From an uncultured Gammaproteobacteria bacterium (GTDB taxonomy: Bacteria > Patescibacteriota > Patescibacteriia > Patescibacteriales > UBA12465), in assembly GCA_964639785.1 (NCBI GenBank), contig CAZXEE010000001.1, forward strand, positions 115,832 to 179,831: a DNA stretch of 64,000 bases. The letters run 5' to 3'. Under the pieces are notes generated by a model that did no database searches, was not told where the DNA came from, and was given only the letters and a program-made list of their open reading frames with translations. Each line of letters begins with the position of its first letter. Position 1 is the stretch's first letter. Below are positions 20,049 through 63,469 of the stretch, piece by piece. The translations under genes and the position numbers were made by a program.

Positions 20049-20087
20049 GTTATGGTAATTTCTGGTATAATAATATTATCTCAATCT

Positions 20088-47900: not shown

Positions 47901-50900
47901 TTCTACAGTTGGGGCAGTTCTAGTTCCGGTTATCAATTACAGCCTTCTAAGCTGAAAGCTTCGGCCGATAAGCCAGAACTTACTGCCGGAACTTTTGATG
48001 CTAATCGTAATCATGTGCTTGATGGCGCTGTTGTCTGCAGCGAAGCGATTTTCAATTCAGCTCCTTCCAGTTCAGCTTACAATTCTGATTGCCGCCAGTT
48101 CTATAATAAGGATGGTGTCATCTTCTATGCTTTGTATTCTAAAACTATCACTTGTTCCAATGATTGCCATCCATACCGTTTGAGCGAAACTCCGATTGAT
48201 GAGAGTATTACTTCAGCCGCTGCTTGTACTGGCGCTGACAAGAATTGGGATGCCAGTAGCACTGCTTGTATGGTTTGTAAGAATGGCGGTGTTTGGGATA
48301 ACACCCAATCAGCTTGTATCTATCAGGCTATTCCAGGTGAAGGTCGTTCTTGCGCCTCGACTGAAAATGGTTGTCGCGAATATAATGGCAATCATGGTAA
48401 TACTTCGAGGATTATTAATTCATATGATTTTGAGAGCAGCCAAGTTTGGGGCAGCTATTGTAACGATGCTTCATCTCTGAGTTCTGATTCTATCAATAAG
48501 AATGGTCACTCTTTGAACTATAATTATAATGGCGGTTCTTGCGGTACTAATAATTTTAATCTGGCGCCGGTAGTAGTCTCTAGCCGGCATAGCGACCCAA
48601 GCCTATTGGCTGTTATCAAGAACTTCTGGAGCCGAGTAATCAAGGGAGCTGAAGCGCAGTCTAATAATGCCTTGCCAAGCCATGGTATCGGTATAACTGT
48701 CGGCAAGACTGTCAACCAGAATTCTGCTTATGTCTTAAGATTCCTGGCTAAGGCCACCTCTAATGTTTCTATTAATGCTTATCTAGCTAATGGTACAGTG
48801 GCTTCTCAATTTAACGTTAATGCTCAGAATAATGGTTCTGTTTCTATTTCCGGTAATAATGAGTGGAAGATGTATACCGTCAATCTAGCCGCCTTAGACC
48901 ATGAGGTTACCGACCAGGAGGCTCTGATTATTTCCGCTTCCGGCGGTTTGCTGCTTGATGATATCACCCTGACCGAGGTGACTGATCGTTTTTATCTGAT
49001 CAAGGATTCATGGGTGACTCCGGATTCTTGCTACTACGATACTGCCAACCAGTATCAAGGCGTTAACTATAACTTAGGTTGCGGCGCTTATACTAATCGC
49101 GCTAATGCTACTTCATATCTCCGTAATTTCAGCCATCTCTGTTCTGATTCTTCCGCCGGTTGTGAATTGATGGCTTTGACTAATAATTCTTCCGATCCTG
49201 GCGTTCAGACTTTCAATGAATCCGGCACAGCCAATAACCAATGTGACGGCTCCGACGGCCCTTCTTGTGTCCAAGTTCCGGCTGACAAGATGGCCTATGT
49301 CATCTATGACACTACCAAGCAATGCGGTTCGGAAAATAAAGGCTGTTCCCGTTTAGGCCAGCAGACCGTTACCAACCAGGATGTTACCGTCCAGAACCTG
49401 TATGCCGATACTTACATCAAGAATAATCCGGATAAATATGACACCATCCTTTGCAGCGATAATGAAGTCGGTTGCGACGAATGGAAATATCTTGACGGCC
49501 AATCTAGCTACTTCAAGGACCCAGGCGATAATGTCTGTGAATGGCGCCGTCCGGTCAATGCTACCGGTATGAACTTGCCACAGAAATGGTACAAGAGGGC
49601 TATTAAGCGTTGCGATTTTGACAACAATGGCAAGATCAATATTGATGTTAATGGCAATATTACTGAATCTCAGAATAAGCTTTGTAATTCTGACACCGAT
49701 TGTAATTATAAGCCTTGTATCTTAGACAAGAATGATTATCTGTGCGAAGTCGATTCTTTGAAAACTATCGGCTTGGGCGGCGGCAATTTAGTCTACCAAC
49801 CGAAAACCATGGTCGGTGTCTGTGAAGCCAAGGCTTCCGGTTGTACTGAGTATGTCGACCCGGTCAGCGAATTCTCACCGAATAATATCGTCAATCCAGG
49901 CTGGGGAGATATCAACAAGGATGGCATCAAGGGTGATGGCTGGTCCACTTCTACTTTCCAAACTGTTCCGATGCAAAAGCAGACCGTCTATCTCTTGAAG
50001 AATAAGCTATATAGCTTGTCGGCTGTAGCTTCCGGCGCTACACAGGATACTATTTTGTCCTGTCCGGCTTCTGTCAGGGTTTTGCAGGCTGACAACAGCT
50101 TTGCCGCTCCGACTAACACTATCACTATCGACAATGTGGTGGCTAACAAGAATGTCCTCTTCAATTCTTTGAACAATGTCGCTTGCACCATCTATGGCGG
50201 TGAGAATAACAAGACGATCAGCCTGCGCGGCACTATCGTCGACTACAAGCTGTTGACGGGAGTTGATAAGACGACTTGTAACGGAGCAGCTAGCTTCGAT
50301 TCTGGTTGCATCTTGTTTAATGAAAGAAAACAGAACGGATCTTCCGGATTGAGCGCTATGACTTGGAATGCTTATGGCGGTTCATATAATTCTGCCTCTC
50401 CAATTACTCCGACCAATTTGGCTGATGCCGATTCCAATGTTTTGATTAAGGTCAAACCGAACCGGGTCTGTTCCAAATGGCTGTCTTGTATGAGCATGGG
50501 CATCGATTCCACTACCGGCGAGGAAGTCTGCTATGCCTTGGGAGAGTGCGACAAGCTGAACGATTTTGGCCGTTGCCAGAGTTTCGTTACCAAACCTGAA
50601 ATCCAGCATACTTTCGATTCCGGCTCCGACAGGAATATCACTGGCTACTCTAAGATGAATAACTATTACCTGTCTAATATGAGTGAGGTAGGTGAGGATT
50701 TGTCAGGCAATCCTAACGGTGGTAGCTGGGGGTTTGAGAGTACCAGTACTCCAGGATTTACAATTAATAATTATAACAAAGCCATTACAGATTTTTCCGT
50801 CATCGTTGGGGCTATAGATTATCCGGCTGTCGGCAAGGGCGTAGCCTTGATTGGCGGCAATGCTTCTACTACTCCTTCGAACCAAATAGCATCGCTAAGC

Positions 50901-52796
50901 TTTGCTGTTACTAATAAAGACAGGGAACACTTTGTTAACTTCTTGGTTAATATCGATGCTTCTGAGGGTGGTAAGTTAGAGGTTTCAGGAACTGGTTGGT
51001 CAGCTTCAACAATTATTGATTCTGGCACCGGTTGGCAAAGAAGGGTTTTACGTTTCGTTCCGACATCTAATGGAAATGCTGTAATTAAGTTATACAGTTC
51101 AAGTAATAGCGCTCCGACTTATTTTGATGATATCAATATTGAACCAGTCCTCAAGGTGGCTGATAATTCCTATGTCGCTAAGGAATGCCGTTTGTATCCT
51201 AAACAGGACAGCTTGTCTTGTAAGAGTGATAATCAGTCCGTGACGGCTAACGGCATCTACGGCTATTGCTTGGAACATGATCCGAAGAATCAGAATGTCT
51301 GTATCATGTGGTATCCGATTGATAACGTAAAGAGTAGCCAGGCCTCAGCTGGAACATTCAGCGGCTTTAATGGTTATAATGGGGTTACTAATCCATATTA
51401 TTGCGCTCAGATAACTCCTAATTACCAGTTCTTAGAGAAGAGATCGGCTTATCTGTTGACTAGCCAAAATTCTGATAATGGATGTACTTATTGGGCGGGG
51501 TTTCCTGTATTAAATCAATGTCCAGCTGGTTATAAGACATTTTTTATGAGATGGCAACACCATGAAGGCAATAATGCAAAATGTACGACAGATTATTTCT
51601 GTATTCCAGAGGGTGCTGGTTCTGATGTTGTTAGGGTTTGTGATCCTAATTCTGAATCAGCCAATCCAGGCGATCCAGCCGGCTGTTCCTCGGTTAATGG
51701 ACCTTATCCGCAAACATATGGGCCATTCTCTTATTTAGACGGATCGACTGCTTTTGTCTCTGGTTCATCTTTTGGTGGCGGTAATGGAGGTTATGATGCT
51801 TGGATAGAGGTTTCTGGCAATGGTTATTATATCTATAATGGAACCCAATCCCATGATAGTTTAATTGGTACTAAATTACTGGATTATGATGACAACACCG
51901 TTAAAGATACTAATGGTTTTGTGCCGAAATGTACTAAGTTTGTTAAGGGAAGTACCCCATGGGTCAAGAGATTGAGCGATGATGTAGTACCTCAATTCTT
52001 CAATGTTAATCCATATTCTAGTCTTCGACTTGGTTTTAATATTCAACCTTTTGGATCGACAGATCTCAGCACTACTAATCCAGGATTCCCTTATTCTTGT
52101 TATCCGGCTGGTGGTTTGACTAACAACGGCGCTGAATTATGCAAGACGGTTAACGTTGCTGCTAATGGAACTATATCCGTAAGCTATCAAGGTACTGGTC
52201 CGTATATTAATGGTACGACAGCAACATCAGCTAATTATTTAAGGCAGATATTCTTGAAAGGTGAGTCTGCGTCATCAGGATTTAGCTATAATTGTTTACT
52301 TGGAACTAATTGTCCTACAATAACTCCATGTAGCGGTAACACCCGTCCAAACAATAGTCCAACTACCGGTTATTGTTCTGTTTATCCGGACGTCATTGAC
52401 TCATCGATTAAGTTAAGAGATTCTGAGGGTCATTTAATCCCATACAATAATGGTTATGCTATCTCTACTCCTGGATACTATACTTTGAGTTTTGGTGTTT
52501 CAGTTGATCCTGAACAATTGCCGGTTAGCCAATTGTTGATTGATTTTGATGATGGAACCAATGCTGAGGCTACCCAGATTGATCCAAGTAATAACTATAA
52601 CTTCATCCATTATTTTAATCCTCAAACTGGACAGACGTCATATCATATCAGGATTAAGGTAAAGGATAATTGGGAGACTTTTGGATGGAGTGGGTTGCCA
52701 ACCAGTGGAGGTTGTAATGCTATTTTGTGTACTAAGAATAATTTTAGCTCAAATCTCGTTGGTCCGGGTCAGGCATGCCAAAATTGTCTCCAATAA
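44967..52796 (+). CDS. Giant (2609 aa) secreted/surface cysteine-rich protein with CBM-like beta-sandwich modules and a PKD-like C-terminal domain
   Basis: It is an uninterrupted 7.8 kb ORF with an N-terminal signal/anchor (LLIPVLVLVFVATPIKPAAAQ). Three segments begin with xxDFE and end with (L/F)DDIx(L/I)xE-like strands. The C-terminus DFDDGT..H.F..G.Y.I.I.V.D is PKD-like. Confidence 0.75.
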   Translation: MKKPTKRLFLKSMLLIPVLVLVFVATPIKPAAAQIPADTIGGPVQVVMKVVSQVTKKLDAALKKVGSNMVQTAITNSLKRVAYDTATWIGSGAAGQKAQFATEGTGAYLLSVADSAAGDYIDEFAKNLNVNFCEPDLNVKVKIGLGLVDSVEGGSKIKDSKCKASTMFKAWKSDINEKYKAMTSPTFLKDMSSMFEVGGSDLTASLEVMDGIQKTVYDKKEKEKLDLSIEGWLPNKNIGGKTSEAPGNAKMQLEQATKNTSEAQKVNISQSPVTDAAKVFLNTLATTAFNKALKSLAGGDIKGTLSALTLGIYKDKTDAEVAELIANGGSSSLAANTNGTSCLNDPNCDPNVFQGISAVKSNLAEILKPSFDSRGDYDILSELSVCSDSTKPGPTECILDEQFSSAISDHKTVIEAIKDGSLNKTWRLKRDVDFNQGYSLRSLLVLRKFRIIPVGWETALIKAEENNANVTLMDMVSCFDPNDNYNEFSQGFTPSTWCQGLIDPNWVLKAPLNYCKRQGYGNQILDKTLIAKQTAGSEVIPEEIIMTRADEYCADEQSCIKEKSDGTCEAYGYCTEEKRTWDFDSDSCDAIYNTCQRFIKTNGASVSYLENTIDYSTCNVDNAGCRPYAVSGSYDGSSDKITWNSSNHIYFSKKAEACDSSQEGCNELIRIIPEAGHNFLVNSDFEQDLNIGSWNTNIDINNSSSTNSVSTVVDGYFSDTSISVGGILKKNVVVGPNDYNISGRNYTFSFYAKNCTLGDKAILGGANVDDQTINMGDGNEWAYYSVNYNFPLGLSDNHVFFSIISNSCQVDRLKLEMSGVGTQYSNYRDNSLIYQKLIPDYLASECYVNSNPASPDYRLKPNASNKCSGYARRCNASEVDCDLYKSVRDDFVLPARVTPNDSCFAECDGYDSYIKKATAFANPELSNFIPNSATKCGANAVGCTEFTNLDSVAKGGEGKEYYSFLRQCIKPDNNVCGVFYSWGSSSSGYQLQPSKLKASADKPELTAGTFDANRNHVLDGAVVCSEAIFNSAPSSSAYNSDCRQFYNKDGVIFYALYSKTITCSNDCHPYRLSETPIDESITSAAACTGADKNWDASSTACMVCKNGGVWDNTQSACIYQAIPGEGRSCASTENGCREYNGNHGNTSRIINSYDFESSQVWGSYCNDASSLSSDSINKNGHSLNYNYNGGSCGTNNFNLAPVVVSSRHSDPSLLAVIKNFWSRVIKGAEAQSNNALPSHGIGITVGKTVNQNSAYVLRFLAKATSNVSINAYLANGTVASQFNVNAQNNGSVSISGNNEWKMYTVNLAALDHEVTDQEALIISASGGLLLDDITLTEVTDRFYLIKDSWVTPDSCYYDTANQYQGVNYNLGCGAYTNRANATSYLRNFSHLCSDSSAGCELMALTNNSSDPGVQTFNESGTANNQCDGSDGPSCVQVPADKMAYVIYDTTKQCGSENKGCSRLGQQTVTNQDVTVQNLYADTYIKNNPDKYDTILCSDNEVGCDEWKYLDGQSSYFKDPGDNVCEWRRPVNATGMNLPQKWYKRAIKRCDFDNNGKINIDVNGNITESQNKLCNSDTDCNYKPCILDKNDYLCEVDSLKTIGLGGGNLVYQPKTMVGVCEAKASGCTEYVDPVSEFSPNNIVNPGWGDINKDGIKGDGWSTSTFQTVPMQKQTVYLLKNKLYSLSAVASGATQDTILSCPASVRVLQADNSFAAPTNTITIDNVVANKNVLFNSLNNVACTIYGGENNKTISLRGTIVDYKLLTGVDKTTCNGAASFDSGCILFNERKQNGSSGLSAMTWNAYGGSYNSASPITPTNLADADSNVLIKVKPNRVCSKWLSCMSMGIDSTTGEEVCYALGECDKLNDFGRCQSFVTKPEIQHTFDSGSDRNITGYSKMNNYYLSNMSEVGEDLSGNPNGGSWGFESTSTPGFTINNYNKAITDFSVIVGAIDYPAVGKGVALIGGNASTTPSNQIASLSFAVTNKDREHFVNFLVNIDASEGGKLEVSGTGWSASTIIDSGTGWQRRVLRFVPTSNGNAVIKLYSSSNSAPTYFDDINIEPVLKVADNSYVAKECRLYPKQDSLSCKSDNQSVTANGIYGYCLEHDPKNQNVCIMWYPIDNVKSSQASAGTFSGFNGYNGVTNPYYCAQITPNYQFLEKRSAYLLTSQNSDNGCTYWAGFPVLNQCPAGYKTFFMRWQHHEGNNAKCTTDYFCIPEGAGSDVVRVCDPNSESANPGDPAGCSSVNGPYPQTYGPFSYLDGSTAFVSGSSFGGGNGGYDAWIEVSGNGYYIYNGTQSHDSLIGTKLLDYDDNTVKDTNGFVPKCTKFVKGSTPWVKRLSDDVVPQFFNVNPYSSLRLGFNIQPFGSTDLSTTNPGFPYSCYPAGGLTNNGAELCKTVNVAANGTISVSYQGTGPYINGTTATSANYLRQIFLKGESASSGFSYNCLLGTNCPTITPCSGNTRPNNSPTTGYCSVYPDVIDSSIKLRDSEGHLIPYNNGYAISTPGYYTLSFGVSVDPEQLPVSQLLIDFDDGTNAEATQIDPSNNYNFIHYFNPQTGQTSYHIRIKVKDNWETFGWSGLPTSGGCNAILCTKNNFSSNLVGPGQACQNCLQ

Positions 52797-52958: not shown

Positions 52959-54158
52959 ATGAAAACATTAAGAGTTTTCTTCATCACATTGCTCGTTGCT
53001 TTGATTTGCCCATTTTTTGTCTCTGCCCAGACATACACTTTTGAAGAGATGACTAACCCCGACCCCAATTCTAATAATTTAGTTTGTATAACTAACGTCG
53101 GTAATGTCTTGTTCGCTGGGGGAGATAATGGAACTCTCCTCAAATATAATGGATCTGCCTGGCTGCAGATTGCTAATTCCCAATCCGGACAGATTAAATC
53201 AATTTATGCGGCTAGCGAAAATGATGTCTGGATGACTTTTGATAATGCCATATTCCATTATAATGGATCAACTATTTCGGCTGTTAATATCGGGACCTCA
53301 AACCACATTATGGAAATTATTGGATTTGCTGCCAACGATATTTATGCCTGCGGTTCATTTGGTACTTTTTACCATTATAATGGATCAAATTGGTCTGCGA
53401 TTAATGGCATTCCTGGTGGTGTTAGCTTGGGCGACATGTGTGGGTTGTCCAATGATATTTATCTTACCGGTGAAGATGAAGCATCGCCTTATACCAGAAG
53501 GATGTTTCATTATGATGGTGTTAATTTAACCGAAGTGGTCTCTGGGGTTTATGGTTATGGATGGTATGATATATGGTCTCCGGATAACAATTTGTTTTAT
53601 TTGGGTGGTCGTGAGCTTTATAAATTCGATAAAACTGCCGGAACCGTAGATCAGATCTTTGATGGTTATAATAACCCATTTGGCTTTAGCGCTAATTGTA
53701 TCATTGATTTTTGGAATAGTGGCATGTCAAATGTTGATAGTATCCGAATCTATAACGGTACTACCTGGAAAACGCTTCAGGATCCGATTTATTCCGTTAG
53801 GGATCTATGTTCGCCAACCAATAATCCTAACAATATCTTTATAGTTAGTGATAATGGAGTAATCCGTCATATGGTTATAACTACCGGCATTGAGGAAACA
53901 GCCTTGAATCCAACAAGATTCGACGTTTATCCCAACCCGGCCACTGATCTGGTGACCATTGATCTGAATTTCGACCAGAAGACCGATACCAAGATTGAAC
54001 TTTTCGATGTCGTTGGGCAACGACTTGAACTGATTTCTGACTTCGGGGGTAACGAAGATCAGATCACTTTCAATGTTGGTGAACTGCCTCATGGACTTTA
54101 CCTGATAAAGGTAACTGACCGTGAAGGTAGAGTGGTTAGTAAAAAACTGACCAAATAA
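52959..54158 (+). CDS. Secreted beta-propeller-like repeat protein with T9SS-type (Por_Secre_tail-like) C-terminal sorting domain
   Basis: It has a signal peptide (..FFVSA/QT) and repeats (Y/F)(N/D)G(S/T)xWxx(I/V). The C-terminal approximately 80 aa, VYPNPATDLVTIDL..ELFDVVGQ..LPHGLYLIKV..GRVVSKKLTK, matches the T9SS CTD pattern. Confidence 0.75.
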   Translation: MKTLRVFFITLLVALICPFFVSAQTYTFEEMTNPDPNSNNLVCITNVGNVLFAGGDNGTLLKYNGSAWLQIANSQSGQIKSIYAASENDVWMTFDNAIFHYNGSTISAVNIGTSNHIMEIIGFAANDIYACGSFGTFYHYNGSNWSAINGIPGGVSLGDMCGLSNDIYLTGEDEASPYTRRMFHYDGVNLTEVVSGVYGYGWYDIWSPDNNLFYLGGRELYKFDKTAGTVDQIFDGYNNPFGFSANCIIDFWNSGMSNVDSIRIYNGTTWKTLQDPIYSVRDLCSPTNNPNNIFIVSDNGVIRHMVITTGIEETALNPTRFDVYPNPATDLVTIDLNFDQKTDTKIELFDVVGQRLELISDFGGNEDQITFNVGELPHGLYLIKVTDREGRVVSKKLTK

Positions 54159-54215
54159 AAAAGCAAAAGAAGCAAAAAGTCTCTTACGATTCTAAGAATT
54201 GTTGAAGGGATTAAG

Positions 54216-54246
54216 ATAAAACCCAGTACTAGATACTGGGTTTTTT
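54216..54246. terminator. Rho-independent terminator; copy 1 of an identical 30-nt hairpin repeat
   Basis: ataaaacccagtactagatactgggttttt has the stem aaacccagta / tactgggttt. The identical string recurs at 57948-57977. Confidence 0.85.
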
Positions 54247-54427
54247 ATTTGTTAAATTTTTCATAAAAATATGTTTATTAAATGGCCAAATTTAATAATT
54301 ATTATATATTTTCATCGAGTTTTTAATATGTTGACTTTTTTGTTTAAATATGAGAATATTATTTGTTAGTAATTTTTTGCTAATAAATAAACAAGTTTTG
54401 AACATTAACAATTTAAAATTGAGAGTC

Positions 54428-55843
54428 ATGAAGAAGGACAAAAGAGAATCTGTGTCAAAAAATTCAAAATTTATTATTCTTTTCCCGTCTGGAGAAGAAA
54501 AAATAATCAATCAGGATTTTTTGGGAAAAATGTCTTTTTCTGATGATAAGCCGTTAAATTCTTTAATTAATAATGAATTTAAGGGTTTGCCAGGGAAAGA
54601 GGTGCCATCAATACAGGCTATGCAAAGATTGGAGCTTGTAGATTATGAATCTGCTAGCGATAGCGGCCATTTCCGTTTTTATCCAAAGGGATTTTTGGTT
54701 TATGAATTAATTAAATCGTGGGCAGATGGAATTGCTGACGAGCTTAATTGTTTTAAAATCAAAACACCTCTACTCTATGATTGGAATCATCCGGCTATTC
54801 GTTCGCAGGGTGAGTCATTCCATGAAAGACATTATTCGGTTTCTGGATCTGACAAAGAAAAAGAGTTTGTGATGCGTTTTGCTGGCGATTTTGGGCTTTT
54901 CAGTATGATATCTAATGCCCAGCTGACATACAAACATCTGCCACTGAGAATCTATGAATTTTCTGATAGCTTTCGCTACGAACTTCATGGTGAATTATCT
55001 GGATTGCGGAGATTGCGCGCTTTTTCCATGCCGGACATCCACAGTTTCTGTGAAGATGTTTCACAGGGAATGGAGGAGTACAAAGTTCTTTTTAAAAAGT
55101 ATGCTGATTTGATCGTGAAGAGTGGTGTTGAATATGGGGTTGTATTTCGTGTAGTAGCAGACTTTTATAAAGAGAATAAAGCTGAAATCTGTGAGTTGTT
55201 GAATTACTGCCAAAAATCAGCAATGATTGAAATTCTCCCAGAAATGAAGCATTATTGGGCAATGAAGCATGAATTCTGCAGTATTGATGCCGTAGACGGG
55301 GTTTGTCAGCTTTCTACCGTCCAATTAGACGTGGAGGATGCTGAGCGTTATGGCATTAAATATCGCTCCAAAGAAGACGGAGAGAAAGGATGTATTATTT
55401 GTCATAGCTCTGTCGGTTCAGTTGAAAGATGGATGTTTTCTATTTTAGAGGATGCTTTAAAAAGGGAAAAACCATCACTGCCTTTCTGGTTGTCACCGGT
55501 CCAGATCAGATTAATCCCGGTTTCTAGCCAATATTTGGATAAAACTGAGATGTTTTATTCAATGTTAAGCAAAAACAATGTCAGGATTGACATTGATAAT
55601 TCAAATAACAGTGTTGGCTGGAAGATAAGGCAAGCAGAAAAAAATTGGGTGCCGTTGGTGATTGTTGTTGGTGAAAAGGATGATTTGAATTTAAATTTTT
55701 CCGTACGTCTGAGAAGTGGAAAAATTGAAAATTATGATCTGCCGGAATTTGAGAAAATGTTGAAATCTCTTTCTGATGATTTCCCAACCGTTGGTCTGTT
55801 TTACAAGTACGTATCTAACTATCCGATATTTCGGGGGAGGTAA
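54428..55843 (+). CDS. thrS: Threonyl-tRNA synthetase-like class IIa enzyme (archaeal-type catalytic core plus anticodon-binding domain, no editing or TGS domain)
   Basis: It has motif 2-like FRYELHGELSGLRRLRAFSMPDIHSFC, motif 3-like CHSSVGSVERW, and WLSPVQIRLIPV plus an HGTP-anticodon-like C-terminus. I prefer ATG 54428 over the track start at 54350. Confidence 0.7.
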   Translation: MKKDKRESVSKNSKFIILFPSGEEKIINQDFLGKMSFSDDKPLNSLINNEFKGLPGKEVPSIQAMQRLELVDYESASDSGHFRFYPKGFLVYELIKSWADGIADELNCFKIKTPLLYDWNHPAIRSQGESFHERHYSVSGSDKEKEFVMRFAGDFGLFSMISNAQLTYKHLPLRIYEFSDSFRYELHGELSGLRRLRAFSMPDIHSFCEDVSQGMEEYKVLFKKYADLIVKSGVEYGVVFRVVADFYKENKAEICELLNYCQKSAMIEILPEMKHYWAMKHEFCSIDAVDGVCQLSTVQLDVEDAERYGIKYRSKEDGEKGCIICHSSVGSVERWMFSILEDALKREKPSLPFWLSPVQIRLIPVSSQYLDKTEMFYSMLSKNNVRIDIDNSNNSVGWKIRQAEKNWVPLVIVVGEKDDLNLNFSVRLRSGKIENYDLPEFEKMLKSLSDDFPTVGLFYKYVSNYPIFRGR

Positions 55844-55845
55844 TT

Positions 55846-56904
55846 ATGATTATTGAATTAGATGATTATTGTTTGGAAATATTTTTCCAACATGCCCAAT
55901 TAGAGGTTACGGGAAGATGTAATATGCATTGTCATCATTGTCGTGCCTGGGATGAAGCTAAAATTGATCTTAGTTTCGCAAAAATTCAAAAGGTTATTGA
56001 CTTTTTGATTAGTGAGCGCGATCCAAAAGATTTACGTTTAACTATTTCTGGAGGGGAACCATTCTTAAGAAAGGACCTGGCTGAAATTATTTTTTTAGCA
56101 AAGGAGAAAGGAGTGGATAATATTATTATTACCACTAACGGATCCCTCGTTACTGAAAAAAAAATAAAAGAATTGACAGATATTGGTATCCAAAATTTGT
56201 CAATTCAGGTCAGTCTTGACGGTATATCCTCTGACATTCATGACTCTTTCAGGGAGTATAAAGGAGCTTTTAACAAGGCTATAAACGCCTTGAAGTTAGT
56301 GGCTGATTCACCTGCAATTGCTTCTTTGCGTACTACGGTTTTGCCAGGGACAATTAATGATTTAGAAAAGTTAGTTGACCTTGGTTTAAAATTAGGAGTC
56401 GAAAGAATTGGAATTGGTTCTGTAATACCTGCTGGCCGGGGCAAGATGGACGAATCTATTTTGATGAATCCAAATGAAAAAAAGGCTTTATTAACAAAAA
56501 TTACTAATCTTAAGAAGCTTTATCCAGGGCTAGATATTACCACTGAAGATCCTTTGAAATTTTGTACCAATGATCCAGTTTGGGAATATGGCGACTTTGA
56601 TATTAGCGATGATACCTTTTTTGGGGGTTGTACTGCTGGAATAACAGGATTTAATGTGGATAGTAGCGGGTTGGTTACTCCATGCGCTGTCTTCTTAGAG
56701 CCAATTTTGGTGGTTGAAAATCAAAGTATAGATTCTATGATTGAAGCCTATCAAAATTCAGGTGTTATCAAGGCCCTAGCTTCCAGAAAATTTTCTGGTA
56801 AATGCGGGTCTTGTTCGTTAAAACGTTTGTGCGGTGGTTGCAGGGCTGTTGCCCAGGGGTATTCCGGTGACTATTTAGGATCCGATCATACTTGTTGGAG
56901 ATAA
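55846..56904 (+). CDS. Radical SAM enzyme with C-terminal SPASM domain
   Basis: It has CNMHCHHC (CX3CX2C), the GGEPF SAM-binding motif, and the SPASM pattern GGC-x12-G-x4-C ... CGSCSLKRLCGGC ... C. A GGAGG SD lies 5 nt upstream, inside the end of the ThrRS-like gene. Confidence 0.85.
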   Translation: MIIELDDYCLEIFFQHAQLEVTGRCNMHCHHCRAWDEAKIDLSFAKIQKVIDFLISERDPKDLRLTISGGEPFLRKDLAEIIFLAKEKGVDNIIITTNGSLVTEKKIKELTDIGIQNLSIQVSLDGISSDIHDSFREYKGAFNKAINALKLVADSPAIASLRTTVLPGTINDLEKLVDLGLKLGVERIGIGSVIPAGRGKMDESILMNPNEKKALLTKITNLKKLYPGLDITTEDPLKFCTNDPVWEYGDFDISDDTFFGGCTAGITGFNVDSSGLVTPCAVFLEPILVVENQSIDSMIEAYQNSGVIKALASRKFSGKCGSCSLKRLCGGCRAVAQGYSGDYLGSDHTCWR

Positions 56905-56917
56905 TAAGTTTAATCCT

Positions 56918-56951
56918 GGGGTGAGGCTTGCCTCACCCCTTTAATTTTATT
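56918..56951 (+). terminator. Strong GC hairpin plus T-rich tail after the radical SAM gene
   Basis: ggggtgagg-cttg-cctcacccc (9-bp perfect stem) is followed by tttaattttatt. Confidence 0.65.
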
Positions 56952-56954
56952 GCC

Positions 56955-57749
56955 ATGGAAAGTCTGTTTGAATTATTTAATCAAAAATTTTTTGGAAAAG
57001 CTAAGATTGTAGTTATTGGCAGTAGTATCAGGAATAAATTAGCTGTTAATAATAATTGGCATTTTCCTGATTTGATAATAAAGCACCATCTTGATGTCTT
57101 GATTGAAATTCCGAGTATGAATGAGATAAAATTAGTTAACGAAATATTAAATTATTTCAAGGCTGATCCTATAACCGACTTGTGTTATTCTGCTGTAATT
57201 AATGGATTAGACTTAGAATTCATCGGCGTTATAATTAATAAAGAATTGTTTTCTGTCAAATTGGTAAAGCTGCCAGCTAGACCAGATTTAACAATAGAAA
57301 GATTCGGTTATTATAACACCATGGAGTGTTATGACGAGTCAGGAAATGGTTTTAGCGATTTTAATTCCAGAGAGTTAGTGTTGATGAATAATAATCTGTT
57401 CTTGCAAAAGTATTTAAAGGTCATGTCTCTGAAGTTCCAAACGGGATTTAATTTAGAAGATAACACCGCTAAACAAATTTATTTGTTTGAAAATAATTTG
57501 AATATTCCAGAAAAAAGACAGAAAATTAAGTTTGATTATAATAATAAATTGTTTAAATCTTACAAAAGATATGATCCTGGAGATATTTATCGGGTTGGTA
57601 TCCACGTTGCTTTGATGTATTTAAGGGCTAGGAGCTATGAAGAGGTCACTGATTATATTCATTCCCGCTATAAATTAAAGAAATATTTAGATTTTGTGGG
57701 TGTTGATTATCATAATTTTGAAATTCAGCTTAAAAATAAGTTATTTTGA
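56955..57749 (+). CDS. Hypothetical protein; possible divergent tRNA nucleotidyltransferase/poly(A) polymerase-head-like fold with degenerate catalytic motif
   Basis: ATG 56955 avoids the hairpin. VIGSSIRNKL..PDLII resembles GGxVRDxLL..DxD, RPDLTIERF resembles RRDFTINA, and YDESGNGFSDF resembles DpxgGxxDL. These are eye alignments only. Confidence 0.35.
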   Translation: MESLFELFNQKFFGKAKIVVIGSSIRNKLAVNNNWHFPDLIIKHHLDVLIEIPSMNEIKLVNEILNYFKADPITDLCYSAVINGLDLEFIGVIINKELFSVKLVKLPARPDLTIERFGYYNTMECYDESGNGFSDFNSRELVLMNNNLFLQKYLKVMSLKFQTGFNLEDNTAKQIYLFENNLNIPEKRQKIKFDYNNKLFKSYKRYDPGDIYRVGIHVALMYLRARSYEEVTDYIHSRYKLKKYLDFVGVDYHNFEIQLKNKLF

Positions 57750-57895: not shown

Positions 57896-57947
57896 TCATA
57901 AATGACTGCCCGTGAAACGTTTAATCATCAAGAATTGATGGCCAAAA

Positions 57948-57977
57948 ATAAAACCCAGTACTAGATACTGGGTTTTT
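57948..57977. terminator. Bidirectional rho-independent terminator; copy 2 of the identical 30-nt hairpin repeat
   Basis: It is identical to 54216-54245 and lies between convergent units. Confidence 0.85.
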
Positions 57978-57994
57978 AATATTTTGAAAAAAAT

Positions 57995-59014
57995 TCATAT
58001 AAATTTTTTTTCAAAACAAGAGAAAACATTAATAGCATTTTCAAAAAATATATTCTGTTTAATAATATTAACTTTGTCGGATTTACTGAAATTTTTAAGC
58101 GCCTCTTTAAGTGCCAGGATAATTTGATAATGAAAGAACTTTTGTGGCCAGACATTTTCATTTTCTTTATATCTTTCTTTGGCCCAATGAAAATTTTCGC
58201 TAGTCTTTATTCTTAGCTTCCCCTGGTTGTCTAAACAGAAATTTCCATTAATAAAGCTGAATGGCGCATCGCTTCCGAAAATAATCTTTTTATACCCTAA
58301 AAACTCTAAAGCATTATAAAAGACCTCCGGGTCAGACACCATAGATGTATCCATGTAAATATTTTTTTGTTTAGCTATTTCTTTTAAGGCGAGCGGATAA
58401 TCCTTGGTATTTAAATAGACTACGCCCATGTGTGCTAAAACAAAATTAATATTAAGGTATTTTTTTGATAGATGCATTAACTCATCTAAATTATAGAATA
58501 AATTTTTTGGCAAATGAATGACTATGCTTTTTTTAAGAAAATTAATAATTTCTAATATTTCTTCGGGGAAGCAGTCGATAATTTTAACCTTATCTTTTGG
58601 TTGATCAAACGGCCTATACATTTTTAATCCATAAAATTTATCCAAATACTTTTCATTACTGATTGTTTGGTTTCCGCAGATGGCAACTGGTATTAAGTTG
58701 TTACATTTTAAGGATTTATTCAAGAGGTATTGGTTAATTTCCTTTTCAAAATTAGCCATATGAGGTAAACCAAATATAATTTGATGATAGTTAATGTTTG
58801 GAAATATTTTCTTAAAAATTTTTGCATAAAGCTCAATCGGAAAAAAATTAAAAGAGTTTCCTGGCATGGAAGCTTGTGGATCAATTAAGTCAAATGTTTC
58901 AATTTTTGGCGCTCCGTGGGTGTGGGCATCAATAACAGTTTTTGGCAAAAAATTATTTATTTCTTTAAAATAAATAAAATCCTGCCATTCATAGTTCAGA
59001 ATTTTTTCTATCAT
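57995..59014 (-). CDS. Metal-dependent amidohydrolase-fold (TIM-barrel) hydrolase
   Basis: The pattern VIDAHTHG near the N-terminus, VLAHMG, and IIFGSDAPF near the C-terminus is amidohydrolase_2-like. Confidence 0.65.
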   Translation of the reverse strand: MIEKILNYEWQDFIYFKEINNFLPKTVIDAHTHGAPKIETFDLIDPQASMPGNSFNFFPIELYAKIFKKIFPNINYHQIIFGLPHMANFEKEINQYLLNKSLKCNNLIPVAICGNQTISNEKYLDKFYGLKMYRPFDQPKDKVKIIDCFPEEILEIINFLKKSIVIHLPKNLFYNLDELMHLSKKYLNINFVLAHMGVVYLNTKDYPLALKEIAKQKNIYMDTSMVSDPEVFYNALEFLGYKKIIFGSDAPFSFINGNFCLDNQGKLRIKTSENFHWAKERYKENENVWPQKFFHYQIILALKEALKNFSKSDKVNIIKQNIFFENAINVFSCFEKKFI

Positions 59015-59183: not shown

Positions 59184-59681
59184 TTATAGTTCTTTTTTCA
59201 TCGGTTGTACTTTTAATCCTCTGAATGATCTGATTCCGGTGGTTTTTTTATAATCTAATTTAGAATAGAAATTAGTGGCATACATAGAAGCCCTAATTTT
59301 TATAAATTTTGATCCTTCTTTTGTTGCTTGTTTTTCAAATAAAGATACTAGTTTTTTGCCAATACCATGATTATGAAATTTTCCATCAACAAAAAGATTT
59401 ATAATTCTATTATTTTTTCCTCTAATAATTCCGATTAATTTTTCTTCAGAAAAAGCTCCAATATTAATATTTAATTTTTTAAATTTTTCGGATAAATCTT
59501 CGGGTGTGTTTTTTGTGTTGTCATATTGCAATAGGAAGTTGGATACTGATTTTCTATCACCTTCTTTTAGGTTAAATGTCTGATAGGTTGTAAATATTAA
59601 TGCAGACATTATTGGTGACATTTTTTTGTCAATCTTAATAATTTTATATTTTATCATAGTTTTAATATAATTTGATTTCAT
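59184..59681 (-). CDS. GNAT family N-acetyltransferase
   Basis: It has the acetyl-CoA binding motif FVDGKFHNHGIGKKLV (Q/RxxGxG/A-like). The start is uncertain because of internal Met codons. Confidence 0.7.
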   Translation of the reverse strand: MKSNYIKTMIKYKIIKIDKKMSPIMSALIFTTYQTFNLKEGDRKSVSNFLLQYDNTKNTPEDLSEKFKKLNINIGAFSEEKLIGIIRGKNNRIINLFVDGKFHNHGIGKKLVSLFEKQATKEGSKFIKIRASMYATNFYSKLDYKKTTGIRSFRGLKVQPMKKEL

Positions 59682-60589: not shown

Positions 60590-60613
60590 AAAAAGAGATT
60601 GTTTAAGTGTAAT

Positions 60614-60649
60614 AAAAAACCCATGATTTTTTCATGGGTTTTATTTTTT
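60614..60649. terminator. Bidirectional rho-independent terminator
   Basis: aaaacccatga-ttttt-tcatgggtttt is flanked by A and T runs and lies between convergent plsC and the MFS gene. Confidence 0.8.
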
Positions 60650-61828
60650 TTAATTCTTAGTCCGAGCGAAGACTATCACGGTTATCAATAATATGATGCC
60701 GGACACCAGCCAGGAAGTATTGATGCTGTAACTGGTGGCTAGATAGCCGCTGATTATCAATCCGGCTGCATTGCCGCCGTTGTTAACCATGGCTTCGAAG
60801 GAGGGAATAGTAGTCCGGTGCTCGCTAGTGATATTGTCTTGCAACCAGATCTTCTTGAGCGGGACGATTGTCCCTCGGCTTACTTCATGGAGCATAAACC
60901 AAACAATTATCGGTATTATTCCCAGGCATTGGGTTGTTATGATAATGGCTATAGCCGTTATTCCTTGTAATAGGAATATTGTCCTGAGATTTACCGTTTT
61001 TCGGCTGATATACCATCCGACCAGCTTGGTACCCAAGAAAATCGAGATCGATATGCCGAAGAAAATCCAACCGGAATCGCTGGTTGTAAAGCCTTTACCT
61101 TGGAAAAATCCTTGCCATTGCATATTGAGGCCCATAAAACAAGCTGAAGCTATGGAGCTGAAAATAATCAGTTGCAAGATACTCCTGTTCTTTAGGCTGT
61201 GCTGGATGCCACTCTTCGATTTTTTGACAATCATTTTCCAAGAAGACCTGAGAGAAAATCTTTCTGGCCGGAAATTGGTTTCTTTCATAATAAGATAGAA
61301 AAGAGGAATGAGTAGGATTTGTCCTAGTGAAGCTGCTAGCCAGGGAAGGCCGAGATAGATTTGCCCTAGGTATCCGCCTAAGCAGCTGCCGACTCCGATT
61401 ACGATGAGGTCCAAGCTTTTACCTCGGGCGATCAGCTTTCTGATTGTTCCGGGAGGACTATCTTTCATTTCATCTACCATCCAAGAATCCAGAGCGCCAT
61501 AGACAAAGCTATTGCCTAGGGCGCCTAATATTTCCCAGCCGATGAACATCCAGATAGAAGAGCTGAGATAGTATCCGAAAAAGCACAGTGCTTTTAGGGC
61601 AGAGCCGAGGATAATGGAATTCTTTCGGCCGCAGCAATCCGCAAAAGCTCCGGTGGGGACCTGGAAGATGAAGTTACCGAGCATGAAGAAGGCATTAATC
61701 AGATTCATACCCATATAGCTTATCCCTTTGTCAGAGAGAAATAGCTGGTAGGTGGCGAAGATGAATGATTGGGCTAGCGCTAGGCCGGCCACAAACAACA
61801 GGTAGGATTGTTTGATTTTCTGTTCCAT
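60650..61828 (-). CDS. MFS transporter
   Basis: 392 aa with about 12 hydrophobic segments. The GAFADCCGRK loop resembles the MFS motif A between TM2 and TM3. Confidence 0.72.
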   Translation of the reverse strand: MEQKIKQSYLLFVAGLALAQSFIFATYQLFLSDKGISYMGMNLINAFFMLGNFIFQVPTGAFADCCGRKNSIILGSALKALCFFGYYLSSSIWMFIGWEILGALGNSFVYGALDSWMVDEMKDSPPGTIRKLIARGKSLDLIVIGVGSCLGGYLGQIYLGLPWLAASLGQILLIPLFYLIMKETNFRPERFSLRSSWKMIVKKSKSGIQHSLKNRSILQLIIFSSIASACFMGLNMQWQGFFQGKGFTTSDSGWIFFGISISIFLGTKLVGWYISRKTVNLRTIFLLQGITAIAIIITTQCLGIIPIIVWFMLHEVSRGTIVPLKKIWLQDNITSEHRTTIPSFEAMVNNGGNAAGLIISGYLATSYSINTSWLVSGIILLITVIVFARTKN

Positions 61829-62167: not shown

Positions 62168-63469
62168 ATGAACAGAATCTTAATCAAAGAAGCTAAGAAA
62201 CAGGGTCAGGGAGAGGTCTGCTTGTCCGGTTTCGTTTATAACCAGAGAGCCTTTAAAGGCTTGATTTTCGTGGATTTAAGGGATGTTTCCGGTCGGATAC
62301 AGCTGGTAATCGAAGAACAGAGCGCTGCGGCTTATAATGAGGCCACAAAACTTAGTTTGGAGAGCGTTATCAGTGTCAAAGGATCTCTCAAGGAAAAGCC
62401 GGTCAGGGGTGATGCTGCCGCTAAAGACTATGAATTATTGGTCAGTGACTTGGAAATCTTGAGCTTGGCTGCCGAGCAATTGCCAATCCCGGTCTTGCAG
62501 AAGATTGATAATGAAGCGGATATCGATTTACGCTTGAATTGGCGTTTTTTGGATATCAGGAGACCGGAAAACAAGCTGATCTTCCAGGTTTGGACTGAAT
62601 TAGAGAAAGGTTTCAGGGAATATTATGACCAAGCCGGTTATATCCAGATCTATACCCCGACTTTTATGAGTACTGCCAGTGAGACCGGAGCTGACGTCTT
62701 TGCCGTCAAATATTTCGACCGCCAAGCCTATCTAGCCCAGTCCCCTCAGTTCTACAAGCAGATGGCGATGTCTGCCGGTTTGGAGAAAGTCTTTATGGTC
62801 GGTACTGTCTATCGGGCCGAGAAGTCTTTTACCAACCGCCATGTGACCGAATTTACCGGTTGGGATTTTGAATTATCATACGTCAAGGATGTGGAAGAAG
62901 TGATGGCTGAAGAAGAACAGATGCTGATCCACGGTTTAGCTAACATCAAGAATAATCTCGGTTTGGAAATCGATGTCCCGCAAGCCCCATTCCCGCGTCT
63001 GACTCTAGCCCAGGCTAAAGAGAAATTGGCGACAGCCGGAATCAAAGGTGAAGCTCCGGATGATTTGAATCCGGAAGAAGAGAGAGGCATCTGCGAACTG
63101 ATTAAAGAGGAGACCGGTTGTGATTTTGTTTTTGTTACTGATTATCCGATCAGTGTCCGTCCTTTCTACCATATGCGCTATGAAAATGATCCGACATTGA
63201 CCAAGAGCTATGATTTGCTATACAAAGGCGTAGAGATCACTACCGGAGCGGTTCGGGAACATCGGATTGAGATCTTGGAGAAGCAAGCCTTGGAAAAAGG
63301 CATGAGTTTGGATGAATTGGCTGATTATCTCAATTTCTTCCGCTATGGCTGTCCGCCTCATGGCGGTGCCGGTATCGGTGCAGCTCGAATCGTGATGAGA
63401 ATGTTGGATTTGAAGAATATCAAGGAGGCTATTTACTTGCCACGTGATGTCAAACGCTTGAATCCTTAG
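62168..63469 (+). CDS. aspS: Aspartyl-tRNA synthetase, archaeal/eukaryotic type (possibly non-discriminating)
   Basis: 433 aa with an N-terminal OB fold, class IIb motifs YRAEKSFTNRHVTEF and PPHGGAGIGAARIVM, and the C-terminal PRDVKRLNP. Confidence 0.85.
   Translation: MNRILIKEAKKQGQGEVCLSGFVYNQRAFKGLIFVDLRDVSGRIQLVIEEQSAAAYNEATKLSLESVISVKGSLKEKPVRGDAAAKDYELLVSDLEILSLAAEQLPIPVLQKIDNEADIDLRLNWRFLDIRRPENKLIFQVWTELEKGFREYYDQAGYIQIYTPTFMSTASETGADVFAVKYFDRQAYLAQSPQFYKQMAMSAGLEKVFMVGTVYRAEKSFTNRHVTEFTGWDFELSYVKDVEEVMAEEEQMLIHGLANIKNNLGLEIDVPQAPFPRLTLAQAKEKLATAGIKGEAPDDLNPEEERGICELIKEETGCDFVFVTDYPISVRPFYHMRYENDPTLTKSYDLLYKGVEITTGAVREHRIEILEKQALEKGMSLDELADYLNFFRYGCPPHGGAGIGAARIVMRMLDLKNIKEAIYLPRDVKRLNP

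Follow-up and report, generated by a model that had tools for sequence, protein, structure and literature searches.

Introduction

Several aminoacyl-tRNA synthetases (aaRSs) belong to pathway cassettes, such as that of pylS-pylBCD, which combines an aaRS with the radical S-adenosylmethionine (SAM) enzyme PylB, and that of valanimycin biosynthesis with the seryl-tRNA synthetase VlmL. Here, we describe a threonyl-tRNA synthetase (ThrRS)-like gene in a 64,000-nucleotide stretch of DNA (contig CAZXEE010000001.1, positions 115,832 to 179,831), which was analyzed at its full length and is called the window below. The gene encodes an archaeal-type ThrRS core without an editing domain and is directly followed by a radical SAM/SPASM gene, whose family adjoins ThrRS genes of four evolutionary types.

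Among the described ThrRS systems, the split crenarchaeal system made up of ThrRS-cat and ThrRS-ed is attributed to Korencic et al. 2004 in a later paper (PMC4787780). In cyanobacteria, a duplication gave rise to the ThrRS copies T1 and T2, of which the editing-impaired T2 coexists with an editing-proficient copy (PMC4787780). Furthermore, archaeal-type tyrosyl- and tryptophanyl-tRNA synthetases (TyrRS, TrpRS) derived from DPANN archaea are found in bacteria of the Candidate Phyla Radiation (CPR), where TrpRS-A is always accompanied by an unknown ORF1 (PMC5370408).

An archaeal-type ThrRS core without an editing domain

The gene and its metal-site motif are located as follows:

54428-55843, + strand: archaeal-type ThrRS catalytic core and anticodon-binding domain without an editing domain; 471 amino acids (aa), putative metal triad Asp154/His205/His326
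54875-54895, + strand: RFAGDFG motif, residues 150-156, with Asp154 (54887-54889) in the column of the bacterial zinc-ligand Cys

The open reading frame (ORF) around the gene spans positions 54350-55843 (+). We take the ATG at 54428 (MKKDKRES) as the true start because five close relatives all begin at the same position of the alignment, which upholds the ORF (54428-55843) proposed in an earlier sequence-only reading of this DNA. Pfam places the domain tRNA-synt_2b (PF00587) at residues 137-341 (E 1.4e-19) and HGTP_anticodon (PF03129) at residues 359-447 (E 3.7e-14), and it detects neither an editing nor a TGS domain in the protein, with no match to PF08915. Residues 3-463 align to positions 144-607 of the 613 positions of NF003068, the NCBIfam model of archaeal thrS. 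The first ~143 positions of this model, corresponding to the editing domain, are missing, so that the protein begins exactly where the editing domain ends. The lack of an editing and a TGS domain, already noted in the sequence-only reading, is thus confirmed by both approaches. The NF003068 score of 437.5 bits lies below the equivalog cutoff of 484 bits, a shortfall that seems consistent with the absence of 143 positions, and the score for the bacterial/eukaryotic thrS model TIGR00418 (311.3 bits) is likewise below its cutoff of 383.65.

The protein is ~53% identical over 100% of its own length to full-length archaeal ThrRS. Among the matches listed, at least 120 relatives show 50-57% identity, and most of them have 612 aa and carry the tRNA-Thr_ED editing domain. 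These full-length (~612 aa) archaeal relatives are encoded on archaeal contigs of up to ~2 Mb and bear the source name threonine--tRNA ligase. Across 106 full-length archaeal ThrRS, 199 core columns are conserved to at least 97%, and 152 of these are unchanged in all five members of the ThrRS-like family. The retained columns include motifs 2 and 3 as well as the invariants of the anticodon domain, and the window protein keeps the motifs FRYE...GLRRLRAF and GSVERW. Comparison with E. coli ThrRS structures by phmmer and alignment with MAFFT L-INS-i also reproduced the previously suggested correspondences of FRYE..GLRRLRAFSMPDIHSFC, CHSSVGSVERW and WLSPVQIRLIP to bacterial ThrRS.

The ThrRS-like family forms a small clade of its own with a long stem. 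It shows the specific changes HPAIR, FSDSFR and a YKYxSxYP tail, family-specific substitutions include D123A, R159S, K180D and H200S, and a few such substitutions lie near the active site. The archaeal ThrRS lineage suggested earlier is supported (NF003068, ~53% identity), but HPAIR, which had been taken as an archaeal string, occurs in this family only, the archaeal consensus being QPDIR. A collection of 185,579 species genomes without the window's own genome held no close relative of the protein (best match 45% identity, Korarchaeia), and two scans of viral contigs as well as phage and plasmid collections matched only bacterial thrS at ~26% identity. Altogether, the gene is a real archaeal-lineage ThrRS core, which is predicted to be catalytically competent.

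The metal site is shared by the archaeal-type lineage

Zinc has been described as "universally present" in ThrRS (PMC4787780). We compared the metal ligands in an L-INS-i alignment that combined the window protein with archaeal ThrRS, with the bacterial-type ThrRS of fetched loci and with an E. coli ThrRS fragment. Here, Asp154 shares its column with E. coli Cys334, and the bacterial-type Cys/His/His zinc site (E. coli C334, H385, H511) is thus not found in the window protein. His205 (55040-55042) falls in one column with E. coli His385, His326 (55403-55405) in one with His511, and Asp203 (E. coli Asp383) is conserved as well. Two observations of the sequence-only reading are borne out by these data, namely that there is no Cys at the zinc-ligand position, where bacterial PMNCPGH is replaced by RFAGDFG (phmmer and L-INS-i), and that both His ligand positions are retained. 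In a single profile-profile run with hhalign, the Cys column was displaced by one position, and in none of the alignments does a Cys occur there.

The interpretation attached to the missing Cys, an altered metal site leading to altered specificity, is not supported. All 121 archaeal-type ThrRS retrieved, 106 of them full-length, contain RFA[GD]DFG (120 RFAGDFG and one RFADDFG), and the Asp/His/His triad (RFAGDFG / MPDxH / CHSS) is common to the entire set. It is also retained in a diverged paralogue of locus L101, in which motif 2 has changed from FRYE to FRYH. A sister ThrRS lineage of ~500 aa reads LRFAACFGQY, with a Cys precisely in the Asp column of the archaeal-style motif. Judged from these alignments, the Asp that stands for Cys is conserved throughout the archaeal-type ThrRS lineage and does not represent a lesion of the window protein, and metal would be bound through Asp in this lineage. 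Since the Asp is invariant in 121/121 sequences, including full-length enzymes, the metal site is ordinary and gives no sign of altered specificity. That loss of the zinc Cys altered the metal site of the window protein, and with it the specificity for the amino acid, is the least likely of all explanations and highly improbable: the Cys is absent and a few family-specific substitutions are found near the active site, but genuine full-length enzymes share the Asp, and both His, Asp203 and motifs 2 and 3 are conserved.

These findings call for caution in using Cys334 as a ThrRS signature, as the entire archaeal-type lineage has Asp instead. Among PDB sequences we found no archaeal-type ThrRS catalytic core, so the archaeal metal site is without structural precedent. 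The interest of the locus lies in its gene context and not in its metal site.

A radical SAM/SPASM gene is linked to ThrRS genes of different types

Directly downstream of the ThrRS-like gene, the following elements were identified:

55846-56904, + strand: radical SAM/SPASM enzyme, 352 aa; CNMHCHHC motif (residues 25-32) and a C-terminal signature of seven Cys
56918-56939, + strand: GC-rich hairpin with a 9-bp stem, then a T-rich tract; terminator- or attenuator-like, between the radical SAM gene and gene 3

The radical SAM gene starts 3 bp past the ThrRS stop, with GGAGG within the last ThrRS codons, and the identical 3-bp spacing is present in loci L005, L006 and L007. By this arrangement, the radical SAM gene is translationally coupled to the ThrRS gene. 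The hairpin and T-tract that follow suggest that both genes make up a bicistronic core and that read-through into gene 3 is attenuated. The C-terminal cysteines of the enzyme (C262-x12-G-x4-C280; C320-x2-C-x5-C-x2-C332; C350) and the CNMHCHHC motif are all invariant in the alignment, and its full-length matches to NCBIfam SPASM families all remain far below the cutoffs. A typical trait of maturases of ribosomally synthesized and post-translationally modified peptides, the N-terminal peptide-recognition (RRE) domain, is absent; the core begins at residue ~18, and SkfB, CteB and SuiB align with the window enzyme only from their residues 101-137. Nor was a small ORF, such as an adjacent precursor peptide would require, found between or upstream of the genes. 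The Tyr-rich tail of the ThrRS (YKYxSxYP) was considered as a substrate of the radical SAM enzyme and was rejected as a general explanation, as bacterial-type and RFAACFG-type partners do not have this tail. In PADLOC, the enzyme showed only generic radical SAM similarity to pVip.

A metagenome scan with the radical SAM family yielded 80 loci. In 29 of them the radical SAM protein is at least 42% identical to that of the window, and in 25 of these 29, a ThrRS gene lies no more than 7 kb away. Of the other four loci, three are contig ends, leaving only L041 as a possible true exception. Gene order and strand differ between loci, and the ThrRS partner can be archaeal and editing-less (window family, L024), archaeal full-length plus a 482-aa copy (L025), of the RFAACFG type with ~500 aa (11 loci) or bacterial with 559-670 aa (L023, L038-40, L042, L043). 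Radical SAM relatives of at most 41% identity (L044-L098, 35-41%) never have a ThrRS neighbor. In 43/55 loci of this latter group, which forms the next-closest clade of the family, the gene is paired with a SAM-dependent methyltransferase of ~155 aa (e.g. L054:7968-9583), and an ORF of ~80 aa is sometimes located upstream. Neither the window (Rfam, ARAGORN) nor the cassettes of the 29 loci hold a tRNA gene, which argues against a pyl-like code-expansion cassette.

Literature searches returned nothing specific on the link between radical SAM enzymes and ThrRS or on the zinc ligands of archaeal ThrRS. As such, the presence of an archaeal-type ThrRS without an editing domain in a CPR bacterium adds a new member to known kinds. 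For the linkage of ThrRS with the radical SAM/SPASM family, its linkage with the amidohydrolase family Amidohydro_2 and the tiny family of proteins resembling CCA-adding enzymes (both described below), we found no description in Pfam, NCBIfam, PADLOC or the literature searched.

A foreign island in a CPR chromosome

The window is chromosomal, encoding rpoB, rpoC, ftsK, murJ, lepA and recJ, and its RpoB is 92-95% identical to proteins of Candidatus Falkowbacteria bacterium (Patescibacteria/CPR). The GC content at third codon positions (GC3) ranges from 0.18 to 0.36 in five genes beginning with the ThrRS-like gene, as opposed to 0.46-0.59 in the genes on either side, which delimits a foreign island of ~5.5 kb. 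In a further 14 RpoB clusters, identity to the window RpoB is 91% or more, but no relative of the ThrRS-like protein exceeds 80% identity; close Falkowbacteria relatives are thus evidently without the gene. Consequently, the ~5.5-kb island was horizontally acquired, and the ThrRS-like gene is its first gene and not an old resident of the CPR chromosome.

Two copies of a direct repeat are present in this region:

54213-54256, strand not assigned: hairpin or terminator-like element of 44 nucleotides (nt), copy 1; 89% identical to copy 2, with an identical core AAAACCCAGTACTAGATACTGGGTTTT
57945-57988, strand not assigned: hairpin direct repeat, copy 2

The pair brackets exactly three genes of the + strand (ThrRS, radical SAM and the gene 3 protein described below), and a weaker third copy of the 44-nt repeat lies at 60611-60654. 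The repeat could be a duplicated terminator or an insertion remnant. It was also considered as a conserved attachment (att) site, but this was discarded as neither L006 nor L007 shows it. Neither a T-box nor a riboswitch or tRNA was detected in the window by Rfam and ARAGORN.

The remaining cassette genes

Three further genes complete the island:

56955-57749, + strand: CCA-adding-enzyme-like protein (NT-like), 264 aa, with a class II tRNA nucleotidyltransferase head-and-neck fold (predicted from a model)
57995-59014, - strand: metal-dependent hydrolase of the Amidohydro_2 family (339 aa), whose HxH / H / H / D metal site is intact; low GC as part of the island
59184-59681, - strand: GNAT acetyltransferase of 141-165 aa, the length varying with the start codon chosen; its GC is the lowest in the island (GC3 0.18)

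The start of the NT-like gene is probably the ATG at 56955 and not the TTG at 56928. The window protein had no match in Pfam, NCBIfam, PADLOC or PDB sequence searches, and the best member of its family reaches E 0.021 and 15.6 bits against PF01743, for which the Pfam gathering cutoff is 23. Among 1.8 billion representative proteins, searched exhaustively with HMMER, only eight relatives (clusters) reached E <= 0.001. Residues G22, R26, H45-x-D47, E88, R109-P-D and E115-R116 are invariant. The AlphaFold2 model reaches a pLDDT of 91.4 with a 10-sequence alignment and of 48 with three sequences. In a Foldseek comparison of this model with the PDB, the top 27 matches comprise exclusively class II tRNA nucleotidyltransferases and bacterial poly(A) polymerase (E 6e-8 to 5e-5, TMq 0.45-0.57). 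In agreement with this, hhalign aligned the family to E. coli Cca (E 3e-4; the Cca sequence used was confirmed as PF01743), with RPDLTIER matching RRDLTINA and later motifs aligning too. The model thus assigns a class II tRNA nucleotidyltransferase fold to the NT-like protein. Its metal motif reads HxD...E and not DxD...E, and the EDxxR motif is absent. In all five fetched loci encoding a family member (5/5), it is found in the cassette. PDB searches by profile or sequence with the radical SAM enzyme, the hydrolase and the GNAT protein gave only generic or uncharacterised matches.

Locus L006 contains all five cassette genes in unrelated, defense-island-like flanks, and parts of the cassette recur in L007, L019 and L005, the flanks of L007 being unrelated too. 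In L043, an Amidohydro_2, a P-loop protein, a radical SAM and a GNAT gene are inserted between thrS and infC; the contig of L029 starts at the P-loop gene, so that what can be seen of the arrangement begins with this gene and extends to infC. An Amidohydro_2 gene is located beside an editing-deficient ThrRS in at least nine loci (window, L006, L007, L024, L025, L043, L100, L102 and L103), which represent at least three ThrRS clades. This amidohydrolase family hence tracks editing-less ThrRS. Two control loci with full-length archaeal ThrRS showed none of the cassette-type neighbors.

This distribution could be explained by a quality-control module, in which Amidohydro_2 would act as a trans-editing factor of a new fold that deacylates Ser-tRNA(Thr), and the NT-like protein might bind the tRNA 3' end. 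The hydrolase of the window is 34% identical over 336 aa to that of L102, its metal site is intact, and Amidohydro_2 is absent beside ThrRS with the editing motifs HxxxH and DxCRGPH as well as beside the two archaeal controls. This idea leaves the radical SAM and GNAT genes unexplained, however, and editing-less ThrRS of the RFAACFG type have the radical SAM partner but no Amidohydro_2. Since nearly all sampled ThrRS are editing-less, the correlation is only weakly controlled, and to our knowledge no aminoacyl-tRNA deacylase with an amidohydrolase fold has been described. Altogether, we regard a quality-control role as improbable.

The most recurrent neighbor families, GNAT, Amidohydro_2 and NUDIX, also raise the question of drug resistance. 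Resistant aaRS copies in producer clusters are well established, as exemplified by BorO, ObaO and MupM. The ThrRS could accordingly be a self-resistance or immunity copy of a drug target on an island that makes or resists an aminoacyl-nucleotide antimetabolite directed against ThrRS. Under this scenario, the radical SAM and NT-like proteins would be biosynthetic, and the GNAT and hydrolase would detoxify the compound by analogy to MccE-CTD and MccF for microcin C. The recruitment of unrelated ThrRS types beside one radical SAM family would be expected if the link were to the target and not to one enzyme lineage, an MccF-like Peptidase_S66 lies near related ThrRS in L003 and L100, and a major facilitator superfamily (MFS) efflux gene is located 1 kb away. 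This MFS gene has a host-like GC, though, and the GNAT shows no detectable similarity to RimL or MccE. Moreover, an editing-less ThrRS would be a poor replacement in translation, PADLOC gives nothing beyond the generic radical SAM matches, the substitutions D123A, R159S, K180D and H200S map to no resistance mechanism, and we know of no inhibitor of the proposed kind. Self-resistance therefore appears unlikely, if somewhat less so than a role in quality control.

Accessory copy and proposed module

As the preferred explanation, with slightly more in its favor than against it, we propose an accessory, horizontally acquired and active ThrRS that serves a previously undescribed module acting on threonyl-adenylate or on the 3' end of threonyl-tRNA. 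By homology, the enzyme would hold Thr by an active-site metal on Asp154/His205/His326, the ligand set of the archaeal-type lineage, would use class II motifs 2 and 3 to form Thr-AMP and would pass the threonyl group to tRNA(Thr), gripped by the HGTP anticodon-binding domain, with cis-editing presumably absent. The ThrRS would be the dedicated aminoacylating component, and its product (Thr-AMP, Thr-tRNA or mischarged Ser-tRNA) would serve as the substrate of the module. The radical SAM enzyme might then carry out radical chemistry on this aminoacyl substrate, and the hydrolase and GNAT may release, mask or proofread the product.

A more specific version is a tentative suggestion that we consider doubtful. 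Here, the five genes would constitute a tRNA-3'-end module traded between CPR bacteria and DPANN-like archaea, with radical chemistry on a threonyl or mischarged seryl group on tRNA or AMP, serving either as a new tRNA-dependent route to modified amino acids or to an aminoacyl-nucleoside antimetabolite, or as a proofreading system of a new fold for editing-less ThrRS. If the genes do cooperate, this would represent new aminoacyl-tRNA or aminoacyl-adenylate chemistry or a new means of coping with the absence of a ThrRS editing domain. Either outcome, if true, would bear on translation fidelity in the reduced genomes of CPR bacteria and DPANN archaea.

That the ThrRS of the window is accessory rather than the sole enzyme is a probable assumption. 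In L003, a member of the family with 75% identity is encoded beside a bacterial-type ThrRS of 605 aa with intact HxxxH and DxCRGPH editing motifs, and L025:1-7800 (8.4-kb contig) encodes archaeal ThrRS of 482 aa and 625 aa. Tandem or adjacent pairs of editing-less archaeal-type ThrRS-like genes are found at L101:835-3759, L102:112-3024 and L103:1473-4484. The paralogue role considered in the sequence-only reading thus gains support from the island, the conserved cassette and the second ThrRS in related loci, but the metal site, on which it had been based, does not contribute.

Several points weigh against the proposed module and an accessory role. The sequences of the radical SAM, NT-like, hydrolase and GNAT proteins reveal no biochemical function, and none of the 29 radical SAM loci has a cassette-associated tRNA gene. 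The NT-like protein may be no polymerase, given its HxD for the catalytic DxD and the missing EDxxR. In L043 (thrS-...-infC) as well as in L030 and L034 (L19 and a tRNA array), the radical SAM gene lies beside a housekeeping-looking thrS, so a dedicated accessory copy is not a general feature. Finally, archaeal-type aaRS replacements are known from CPR bacteria (PMC5370408), and the window ThrRS could be the only ThrRS of its host.

The last point corresponds to a housekeeping xenologue, i.e. an archaeal-type gene that displaced the native thrS, with neighbors that are unrelated passengers or at most involved in trans-editing. The fully conserved active site and anticodon-binding domain would be expected of such an enzyme, and in metagenome-assembled genomes of CPR and DPANN organisms, the protein annotated as ThrRS can be an archaeal-type enzyme of ~478 aa without an editing domain (P0008 Nealsonbacteria, P0042 Micrarchaeaceae). 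The archaeal TyrRS and TrpRS of CPR bacteria provide a precedent (PMC5370408). Besides L030 and L034, L005 also shows the ThrRS-radical SAM pair in housekeeping-looking surroundings, and the 64-kb window encodes no other thrS, no known ThrRS editing domain and no ThrRS-ed homologue. Nevertheless, the compositional island implies a recent arrival, close Falkowbacteria relatives (RpoB 91-95%) evidently do not have the gene, and both a family member (L003) and a sister-clade member (L025) co-occur with a second, editing-proficient ThrRS. In addition, the linkage to the radical SAM gene in 25/29 loci is far above chance, and editing-defective ThrRS was reported to be counter-selected as the sole enzyme (PMC4787780). 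Taken together, displacement of the native gene appears rather unlikely, and an accessory ThrRS remains the explanation that we prefer.

The loci with a second ThrRS or a related enzyme differ in their further gene content. L003:274-19332 has no SPASM-type radical SAM gene beside its ThrRS-like member but three other radical SAM genes, as well as a 372-aa AspRS/AsnA-like (tRNA-synt_2) protein, the MccF-like Peptidase_S66, a D-Ala-D-Ala ligase, two Asp/Glu racemases, methyltransferases and integrase fragments, and it resembles a biosynthetic or resistance cluster in its own right. In L025, two divergently oriented SPASM radical SAM genes and an Amidohydro_2 gene accompany the ThrRS pair. Amidohydro_2 and an NMT1-type ABC transporter occur near the ThrRS pairs of L101-L103. 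The pair of L101, the only one aligned, is 59% identical, and its second copy shows RFNDDLG and the changes FRYE to FRYH and ERHY to KSVY; it is possibly a pseudo-enzyme or a heterodimer partner. L100:107-7996 (Ca. Nealsonbacteria, GCA_026396095.1) encodes the editing-less archaeal-type ThrRS P0008 without a radical SAM gene. Its neighbors are GNAT, four NUDIX, the MccF-like Peptidase_S66, CYTH, Amidohydro_2 and a histidine phosphatase, the common theme being nucleotide or aminoacyl-nucleotide hydrolysis.

Further genes of the window

An archaeal-type non-discriminating aspartyl-tRNA synthetase (AspRS) is encoded at 62168-63469 (+; NF003483 463.7 bits, cutoff 353), 2.5 kb downstream of the island and with host-like GC, and an AspRS homologue of 455 aa lies a few genes from the radical SAM-ThrRS pair in L021. 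Upstream of the island, the protein at 52959-54158 (+) carries a C-terminal sorting domain of the type IX secretion system (T9SS; Por_Secre_tail, E 2.4e-14) and adjoins a 2609-aa protein without a Pfam domain at 44967-52796 (+). A CPR bacterium, assigned to Falkowbacteria by RpoB, is an unexpected host for a T9SS signal. Right behind rpoC, a 496-aa ORF without a Pfam domain is located at 20052-21542 (+).

Comparison with known systems

The closest described relatives of the window protein are the archaeal-type ThrRS (NF003068 / PRK03991; euryarchaeal, with an N-terminal tRNA-Thr_ED domain, PF08915), with which it shares the catalytic core and anticodon domain at ~53% identity, the RFAGDFG, MPDxH and GCIICHSS motifs and the C-terminal ...P(I/V)FRG tail. 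Unlike these enzymes, it has no editing domain of ~143 residues, scores below the family cutoff and belongs to a long-stem clade of its own with the HPAIR, FSDSFR and YKYxSxYP changes, and its gene resides in a mobile cassette of a CPR bacterium.

Similar to pylS and VlmL, the cassette couples a class II aaRS to radical SAM or tailoring enzymes and moves as a unit. It differs from both in that it has no dedicated tRNA gene, its radical SAM enzyme is of the SPASM type and not PylB-like, and the amino-acid site looks like that of an ordinary ThrRS. The NT-like protein shares the head-and-neck fold of the class II tRNA nucleotidyltransferases (CCA-, CC- and A-adding enzymes; PF01743) according to its model (E 6e-8, TMq 0.54-0.57). 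Compared to these enzymes, it has only 264 aa, no body and tail domains, HxD in place of DxD and no EDxxR, and it stays below the threshold in Pfam.

The crenarchaeal ThrRS-cat is alike in being a catalytic ThrRS without editing that needs other means of clearing Ser-tRNA(Thr), whereas ThrRS-1 of A. pernix (PDB 3a31) matches the window protein only at residues 170-208 (E 1.5e-6) and represents a different ThrRS lineage. The coexistence of T1 and T2 in cyanobacteria resembles the situation in L003 and L025. However, T2 is a bacterial-type enzyme with a degenerate editing domain that keeps Cys/His/His, responds to zinc limitation and has no radical SAM partner (PMC4787780). Finally, the CPR TrpRS-A offers a parallel as an archaeal-lineage aaRS obligatorily tied to an uncharacterised partner gene, although the CPR TyrRS and TrpRS belong to the other aaRS class, have another partner and are thought to be housekeeping enzymes (PMC5370408).

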